From the sequence record ON528731: a stretch of DNA of 64,000 nucleotides; one strand, given 5' to 3'. Position numbers and translations under genes: made by a program. Positions 22,276 to 22,404 of the stretch are shown piece after piece. The notes beneath the pieces were generated by a model, which saw only the letters and a list, made by a program, of their open reading frames with translations, made no database searches and had not been told where the DNA came from. Position 1 is the stretch's first letter, and the number at the start of each line of letters is the position of its first letter. This stretch comes from Shigella phage ESh21.

Positions 22276-22404
22276 TACAGAAGACCGTTTACAGCAATTT
22301 AAACAATCTAATTCTCTATAAAAGAAAGGGAGAAGGTTCGATTCCTTCACACGTTACGGCGTGTTGGTGTAATGGTAGCACTTAAGATGATATGGTCTGG
22401 TAAT
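22276..22404 (+). ncRNA. Candidate YrlA-like Y RNA with permuted tRNA-like module
   Basis: Terminal helix AGACCGT/ATGGTCT encloses T-arm GAAGG-TTCGATT-CCTTC (22332-22348), closed hairpin ACACG-TTACGG-CGTGT, D-arm-like TGGTGTAATGGTAGCAC; no anticodon arm. Confidence 0.45.

Follow-up and report, generated by a model that had tools for sequence, protein, structure and literature searches.

The 64,000-nucleotide stretch of Shigella phage ESh21 analyzed here (sequence record ON528731; hereafter "the window") derives from a Felix O1-like myophage of the Ounavirinae and carries an array of 25–26 tRNA genes, all on the + strand, preceded by the gene of a Ro60-like protein. Within this array, in a gap that ARAGORN and Rfam place at 22128–22550, lies an element that we call M4, in which a stem formed by the two ends encloses a circularly permuted tRNA-like domain. 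A first-pass annotation, made from the sequence letters alone, had likened it to the bacterial YrlA RNAs; absent from that annotation was the fact that M4 is one of four paralogous modules (M1–M4) in the array. Particles of Ro60 and Y RNA are conserved from bacteria to humans, and we know of no role that has been established for the tRNA-like domain of the bacterial Y RNAs. Judged from its sequence and from comparison with its relatives, M4 is probably (with a probability of about 0.8) a divergent, phage-encoded Y RNA of the YrlA type and the partner of the phage's Ro60-like protein.

Architecture of Module M4

All the motifs quoted in the first-pass annotation are in place (table 1). The two complementary strands that open and close M4 include one G.U pair, which can form only in RNA transcribed from the + strand. 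Just inside the 5′ strand is the single-stranded motif UUACAGCAA, whose CAGCAA is invariant or nearly so across the module alignments. It is followed in turn by the V hairpin, a T-arm, a closed hairpin in the acceptor position and a D-arm, and the permuted tRNA order claimed for the last three elements therefore holds. The same annotation had stated that there is no anticodon arm, and this proved inaccurate: the V hairpin stands directly 5′ of the T-arm, and in the alignment to the Rfam tRNA model it takes the part of an anticodon arm, the acceptor being left unpaired (19 bits, against a cut-off of 29 bits). In the Felix O1 group this hairpin has a 5-bp stem and a 7-nt loop (UUUCU-CCGGUAA-AGAAA), its position is filled by hairpins of differing sequence in the Felix O1 and Moogle groups, and in many distant relatives its loop reads CU-NNN-AA, as in a real anticodon arm. 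Its counterpart in YrlA is the "V" stem-loop.

Folding by RNAfold without constraints recovers the proposed M4 helices, and a scanner that considers structure only (T-arm, closed hairpin, D-arm) gave no matches in shuffled sequence; its matches at three other loci (L015, L075 and L081) were set aside, being genuine junctions of tRNA dimers. A 423-nt stretch around M4 has 99% identity to Shigella phage ESh22 and is present in about 250 phage records, and M4 itself is kept in 245 of 252 related phage records.

Table 1. Positions in the window of M4, its parts, its sister modules and the associated gene and promoters
Feature	Position	Strand	Remarks
M4, YrlA-type Y RNA (probable) with circularly permuted tRNA-like domain	22282–22398	+	117 bases
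M4 closing stem, 5′ strand AGACCGU	22282–22288	+	pairs with 22392–22398
M4 single-stranded motif UUACAGCAA, proposed protein-binding site	22289–22297	+	YUAY plus AGCAA
M4 V hairpin, anticodon-arm-like	22313–22331	+	RNAfold; directly 5′ of T-arm
M4 T-arm GAAGG-UUCGAUU-CCUUC	22332–22348	+	GAAGG 22332–22336, CCTTC 22344–22348
M4 closed acceptor-like hairpin ACACGU-UACG-GCGUGU	22349–22364	+	ACACG(T) 22349–22354, (G)CGTGT 22359–22364
M4 U8/G9 spacer and D-arm GUGU-AAUGGUA-GCAC	22365–22381	+	TG 22365–22366, GTGT 22367–22370, GCAC 22378–22381
M4 closing stem, 3′ strand AUGGUCU	22392–22398	+	one G.U pair
M1, simple Y-like module	21635–21695	+	AGACCAA...UUGGUCU with UACAGCAA; R1 22.2 bits
M2, simple Y-like module	21796–21853	+	AGACCGU...ACGGUCU with UUACAGCAA; R1 25.2 bits, E 0.0015
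M3, simple Y-like module	22195–22261	+	AGACCAA...UUGGUCU with UUCAGCAA
Ro60-like protein gene, proposed partner	19884–21299	+	471 aa; Pfam DUF2828 and DUF7788; PHROG 850 "RNA-binding protein"
Two sigma-70-like promoters	21318–21438	+	between Ro60-like gene and first tRNA

Covariation among Relatives and Paralogs

Conservation of the helices was evaluated in 15 distinct versions of M4, with 500 shuffles as the control and with the closing stem counted in its homologous outer register, since the inner 7 bp shift between the 7- and 8-bp versions. Changes on both sides that preserve pairing affect 18 of the 22 pairs, a result that disposes of the possibility, named beforehand as fatal to the proposal, that the helices would show no covariation. 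The compensatory pairs are distributed over the closing stem (7/7), the T-arm (3/5), the acceptor-like hairpin (5/5) and the D-arm (2/4), and the covariation score of 0.772 compares with 0.21 in the shuffles and with at most 0.185 when the registers are slid. Paired cells amount to 97.6% versus 69% in the shuffles, none of the 500 reaching the observed value; this percentage is inflated because helix extraction demanded perfect stems at anchored positions, a procedure that affects the compensatory counts less.

The stem of the presumed 5′ and 3′ ends, which had been proposed to be formed in the manner of YrlA, measures 7–9 bp and is compensated at every one of the seven counted pairs. Among the Ounavirinae, the acceptor-like stem occurs as three unrelated sequences (ACACGU/GCGUGU, ACUCGGC/GUCGAGU and ACCCUUC/GAAGGGU), all of them perfectly paired, while the T- and D-arms remain constant. 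The T-loop is invariant, and U8, A14, G18G19 and the T-loop UUCGA are present in all versions. The Levitt pair 15:48 is G:C in four and A:U in three of seven distant members.

The paralogs in the array bear the same signature. The array contains four exact copies each of the words CAGAAGACC and GGTCTGG, which pair correctly with one another and thereby delimit M1–M4; the four modules have in common a closing stem and, after its 5′ strand, U(U/A)(A/U)CAGCAA. Among the paralogs, too, the stem covaries (AGACCAA/UUGGUCU versus AGACCGU/ACGGUCU). Only M4 has the tRNA-like insert; M1–M3, which lack it, are likely to be simple Y RNAs. M1 is separated from its flanking tRNAs by 10 and 9 nt, and M2 by 6 and 11 nt.

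Relatives of M4 vary in two further respects. The loop of the acceptor-like hairpin, a closed UACG in the window, often opens with N-CCA in relatives (e.g., G-CCA-AACA), like the encoded 3′ end of a tRNA; this is the case in the Moogle group (L003, L008 and L009), in L094 (9021–9036) and in L028, L050 and L084. By analogy with the YrlA of Mycobacterium smegmatis, for which processing into a two-piece RNA has been reported, such loops suggest cleavage by RNase P or 3′-end processing into two pieces. There are also intermediate forms, with a T-arm and acceptor-like hairpin but a poor D-arm, with a T-arm leading straight into a D-arm, or with a T-arm alone (L094 9494–9582, L096 9244–9334, L039 2214–2321, L080 5851–5936 and 7517–7614); the tRNA-like insert appears to have been repeatedly gained, lost or eroded.

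Covariance Models and the Relationship to YrlA

A covariance model, R1, was built from 17 modules from outside the Ounavirinae, the training set being de-replicated at 80% as the IMG/VR loci are partly redundant. Its top match in the window is M4, over the full length (22281–22399) and with 64.6 bits and an E-value of 1.2e-12, which, like all E-values of this model, is rough because calibration was shortened; the tRNA junctions of the same array receive at most 22.8 bits. R1 also finds the canonical YrlA of mycobacteriophage Bxz1 (41.1 bits). In the other direction, the Rfam YrlA model RF02553 matches modules that stand beside a DUF2828-type protein in three distant phages (L080, 41.4 bits; L028, 38.2 bits; L051, 35.8 bits), with the Bxz1 YrlA beside its Ro gene serving as the positive control (32.5 bits).

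The spacing of M4 between 22332 and 22381 is that of the Salmonella YrlA crystal structure, in which the TSL occupies residues 33–49, the AS 50–64 and the DSL 67–81 (10.1101/312249): a T-arm of 17 nt, an abutting acceptor-like stem, 2 nt and a D-arm of 15 nt. M4 and YrlA (RF02553; PMC4201824; 10.1101/312249) also share the order of their parts (5′ strand, YUAY, V, T, acceptor-like, D, 3′ strand), the tRNA-invariant bases U8, A14, G18G19 and T-loop UUCGA, a position within 4 kb of a gene with the Ro60 fold on the same strand and the occurrence of several Y RNAs per locus. They differ in that the D-arm of M4 is GUGU...GCAC rather than GCUC...GAGC, and in that its neighbor is a DUF2828/DUF7788 protein instead of a Pfam TROVE protein. 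M4 departs from the known YrlA RNAs in lacking a defining motif of theirs, in scoring below the threshold of their model, in the divergent family of its protein and in its unusual embedding in a tRNA array. Two further marks of YrlA are binding by Ro60 in vivo and the tRNA modifications pseudouridine 55 and dihydrouridine (Chen et al. 2014).

Other small RNAs resemble parts of the system. The Yrl1 and Yrl2 RNAs of Thermus phage phiLo (PMC12135203) similarly adjoin a phage Ro60 and consist of a 5′–3′ stem around a large internal loop with a short protein-binding motif, which in our modules is putative; they were, however, identified by a CGAA motif and have not been described as tRNA-like, and their RNA binding and their complex with the host PNPase are experimental findings, whereas the system in the window is known from sequence. 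Salmonella YrlB and Deinococcus Yrn1 and Yrn2 share with M1–M3 a terminal stem, a conserved motif, a variable loop and a location beside a tRNA-like Y RNA, but they have no sequence similarity to these modules, which are likewise sequence-derived, and carry another motif.

The Neighboring Ro60-Like Protein

The gene of the proposed partner ends 983 nt upstream of M4 on the same strand, and its synteny with the array is conserved. An AlphaFold2 model of the protein, computed from a 40-sequence alignment (pLDDT 89.3, pTM 0.89), has the Ro60/TROVE architecture, in which helical (HEAT-like) repeats form a ring and a vWA domain bearing a MIDAS motif comes after it; the motif, DVSGS (DxSxS) at residue 279, is intact and invariant. 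In a Foldseek search, the best seven PDB matches were all Ro60/TROVE structures with full-length alignments (E 9e-9 to 8e-7, TM 0.50–0.64; the Ro60 structures matched were 9kop, 9l5y, 2i91, 1yvr and 9nep), and those that followed were isolated vWA domains only. The best structural match is phiRo60 of phiLo (9kop, 9l5y). On the strength of this model, the gene product is predicted to have the Ro60 fold. Sequence comparison with the PDB by phmmer retrieved no Ro60, so that a fold search was required. In a preprint on phage Bas63, the homolog gp130 was reported to be Ro60-like and to counter the Ppl defense system, and it was speculated that some of the adjacent "tRNA genes" may be Y RNAs, none being named.

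Association of the Modules with the Protein

We retrieved 65 loci in which distantly related forms of the Ro60-like protein (38–45% identity) are encoded and scanned them within 2.5 kb of the gene for a stem followed after 1–4 nt by CAGCAA and then by the complementary stem. On the strand of the gene, 53 modules were found, compared with 2.9 expected from shuffles (maximum 7); at least one is present in 39 of the 65 loci, and their stems comprise 35 distinct heptamers. There is no tRNA within 1 kb of 45 of these 53 modules, which indicates that the modules track the protein and not the tRNA arrays. All 30 significant R1 matches in the distant loci are on the strand of the protein.

The converse search began from the RNA. 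The pattern ACAGCAA followed by a T-arm identified 120 loci in a viral collection, with 10 of the 151 matches being ordinary tRNAs. The protein was encoded in the flanks of 53 of the 120 loci, as against none of the 10 loci of ordinary-tRNA matches; these co-occurrence figures are lower bounds, because the flanks were limited. A reading of the modules as inverted repeats of DNA or mobile elements was ruled out by the strand bias (30/30; 53 versus about 10), by the asymmetry of the motif and by G.U pairs that exist in + strand RNA only.

Weighing the Assignment

The likeness to YrlA proposed in the first-pass annotation is thus supported by helix spacing, by covariation, by the nearby gene with the Ro60 fold and by recognition between the models in both directions. 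Besides the inflated pairing percentage and the shortened calibration of R1, several observations nevertheless weigh against assigning M4 to this type. The Rfam scan suggested at the outset was unfavorable: RF02553 has no match to M4 even at E ≤ 10, Rfam as a whole gives nothing at M4 except the partial tRNA match, both at gathering thresholds and at E ≤ 10, and the RF02553 gathering score of 69 bits is reached neither by any related module nor by the Bxz1 control. The canonical GNCGAA(N0-1)G motif, the proposed contact of Ro60, is absent from M4 and its relatives; at its position just inside the 5′ strand they have UUACAGCAA or YNCAGCAA, the YUAY element (UUAC) being present. A Pfam search of the protein returned DUF2828 and DUF7788 only, with no TROVE call, and its hhalign alignment with Bxz1 gp220, a canonical phage Ro60, is confined to 40 columns around the MIDAS site (probability 76%). 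The Levitt pair is nonstandard in the window and seven other Ounavirinae versions (A15 with A or C48 in the window, Felix O1 and Moogle), and the folding energy of M4 is unremarkable (z-score −1.29). Finally, Salmonella phage FG1m (L011) and Escherichia phage ESCO56 (L012) keep the Ro60-like gene, M1 and M2 while the M3/M4 region is missing, so M4 is dispensable for growth.

Alternative Explanations

The modules might be cis-acting signals that punctuate the array transcript or guide its processing (e.g., by RNase E, RNase III or RNase P). All four do belong to one predicted transcription unit, M1 and M2 almost exactly fill short gaps between tRNAs, and another long helix directly follows M4; but the distant modules mostly have no tRNA nearby and follow the Ro60-like gene instead, a conserved single-stranded motif beside a freely varying stem is typical of a protein-binding site, and the tRNA-like insert has no obvious punctuating role. 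We therefore regard this explanation as improbable.

Little likelihood attaches, too, to the idea that the modules are sites of the Ro60-like protein in its mRNA or a precursor, that is, autoregulatory or untranslated-region elements rather than independent small RNAs. Many distant modules indeed start 14–60 nt past the stop of the gene or end 12–125 nt before its start. In the window, however, two promoters stand between the gene and the modules, and the modules are interspersed with tRNAs, so that tRNA maturation would release them; moreover, the known partners of Ro60 are discrete Y RNAs.

A location inside a tRNA array also invites the view that M4 is the decayed remnant of two tandem tRNA genes and has no function of its own, the first tRNA having left its T-arm and 3′ acceptor strand and the second its 5′ acceptor strand and D-arm. 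ACACGUU-A-C-GGCGUGU does look like the 3′ end of one tRNA joined directly to the 5′ end of another, the hairpin loop of relatives often begins with N-CCA, true tRNA-dimer junctions (L015, L075 and L081) trip the structural scanner and Chen et al. 2014 (PMC4201824) warned of tRNA–tRNA junctions as a false positive for YrlA. Such junctions and pseudo-tRNAs have in common with M4 a T-arm with a D-arm some 20–30 nt further on; they lack the closing stem and motif, though, and their acceptor strands need not pair. A decaying remnant would not account for three unrelated acceptor-like stems that are each perfectly paired, for the replacement of the flanking tRNA halves by a closing stem and CAGCAA that are also found in modules without tRNA parts, for the same architecture in distant phages with no tRNA nearby or for the R1 score of M4 compared with that of true junctions. 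The covariation largely refutes this view, and the comparative data as a whole answer the suspicion, raised with the first description, that M4 is a decayed tRNA fragment; we find it very improbable, while the tRNA-like insert may plausibly have evolved from a tRNA-dimer junction.

Hardly credible, lastly, is the reading of M4 as a working tRNA gene in permuted or split form, or as a tmRNA-like RNA in two pieces, that would be processed to a CCA end and aminoacylated. The order of T-arm, 3′ acceptor, loop, 5′ acceptor and D-arm fits permuted tRNA and tmRNA genes, the loop of some relatives encodes N-CCA next to the 3′ acceptor strand, and tRNAscan-SE calls a "tRNA-Thr-GGT" in phage ASO1B. The window loop, however, is a closed UACG tetraloop without CCA, ARAGORN finds no tRNA or tmRNA at M4, the Rfam tmRNA models give nothing there and match related modules only weakly, below threshold, and M4 has neither a tag reading frame nor pseudoknots.

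An ordinary tRNA cloverleaf at M4 is likewise recovered neither by ARAGORN nor by the Rfam tRNA model. The ASO1B call, a "tRNA-Thr-GGT with intron" (L001 361–489), was rejected, its acceptor pairing amounting to 3 bp that are not conserved and its GGT lying in the loop of the V hairpin. In public records the locus is labeled "tRNA-Thr-GGT," "tRNA-OTHER" or "hypothetical protein" (ASO1B, ESh22, VSe102 and HP1; an open reading frame at 22131–22385 in the window), and these annotations appear to be misannotated Y-like RNAs.

Transcription and a Proposed Mode of Action

The two strong, sigma-70-like promoters ahead of the array read TTGACA-17-TAAGAT (10/12) and TTGACA-18-TATAGT (11/12, with TG), and a scan of the + strand from 21200 to 22700 found no terminator. 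With promoters ahead of the array and no + strand terminator interrupting it, maturation of the tRNAs would free modules M1–M4. The promoter scan gave a sole site within the array, at 21813–21842 inside M2. A reading of TTTACAGAAGACC...TTTAAA as a promoter was discarded, as none of the modules has a promoter-like site at its 5′ end in the scan and distant phages do not keep the sequence of the stem. By eye, more TTGACA-type promoter-like sequences can be discerned in later gaps, at about 22800–22830 and 23225–23255, and the array may consequently comprise several transcription units. Our literature search turned up no transcriptome data for a Felix O1-like phage.

If M4 is a YrlA-type Y RNA, it would be transcribed within the array from these promoters and released by the enzymes that mature the neighboring tRNAs (RNase P and 3′-end processing). 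Its ends would then form the 7-bp stem, which together with the adjacent single-stranded UUACAGCAA would offer the Ro60-like protein a place to dock, instead of the canonical CGAA-type motif. The interior, comprising the T-arm, the closed acceptor-like hairpin and the D-arm as well as the V hairpin, would fold into a tRNA-like L-shape and could act, as in bacterial YrlA, as an effector-binding module that offers a tRNA elbow to a host factor that recognizes tRNA. M1–M3 would serve the Ro60-like protein as simple Y RNAs, much as YrlB accompanies YrlA.

The output of such a system is possibly antidefense, by analogy with the phenotype reported for the Bas63 homolog. More broadly, though we think it unlikely, DUF2828-type Ro60-like proteins and Y RNAs with the UACAGCAA motif could constitute a widespread counterdefense ribonucleoprotein in which the tRNA-like module is a decoy or tether for host factors that recognize tRNA; tRNA-cleaving defense nucleases, RNase P, PNPase and RNA-repair enzymes are conceivable, if doubtful, targets. 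A counterdefense particle would explain both the action of the Bas63 homolog against Ppl and the embedding of the RNAs in the phage's tRNA array. On this reading, RNase P may also cut those versions whose hairpin loop encodes N-CCA and so produce a tRNA mimic in two pieces, one of them ending in a free CCA.

We found no description of the M1–M4 RNAs in the literature within our reach, which did not include several key reviews. The modules provide candidate RNA partners for a large and unannotated family of phage proteins (more than 3,000 relatives, Pfam DUF2828/DUF7788) and a new candidate recognition motif, UACAGCAA instead of CGAA. They turn a published conjecture, that Y RNAs are possibly among the genes taken for tRNAs, into four specific candidates with coordinates, in genetically tractable Felix O1-like phages and beside a protein with a published antidefense phenotype, and they would correct a recurrent public misannotation as hypothetical proteins or as tRNA-Thr and pseudo-tRNA.

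Other Features of the Array and Its Surroundings

The order DUF5681 gene, Ro60-like gene, tRNA array, DUF7217 gene and large terminase is conserved in Ounavirinae-like genomes (including L093–L096); in the window the flanking DUF genes, which encode uncharacterized proteins, are at 19434–19805 and 25286–26020. A tRNA match by Rfam at 21549–21620 (53.7 bits) was missed by ARAGORN, and a tRNA-Glu is annotated there in relatives. Another possible tRNA-like gene, unannotated, lies at about 23262–23345, with ATGGGAC/GTCCCAT acceptor strands followed by G-CCA and a T-arm GGGGTTCGATTCCTCC; it is called by neither of the two programs, ARAGORN and Rfam.

Two of the spaces around the modules contain structures of their own. 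Between tRNA-Asp and M3 (22135–22190) there are two hairpins conserved across the phage group, the first being GAAGGGC-TTTTTTA-GCCCCTC and the second a near-palindrome, CCTTAAAGAG...TCTTTAAAGG. Between M4 and tRNA-Lys (22403–22549) is a separate conserved structured element without the CAGCAA motif, whose closing helix of about 23 bp has five compensatory pairs between the Felix O1 and the Moogle/SUSP groups and whose interior differs between these groups; an RNase III site or a further noncoding RNA would be possible identities for it.

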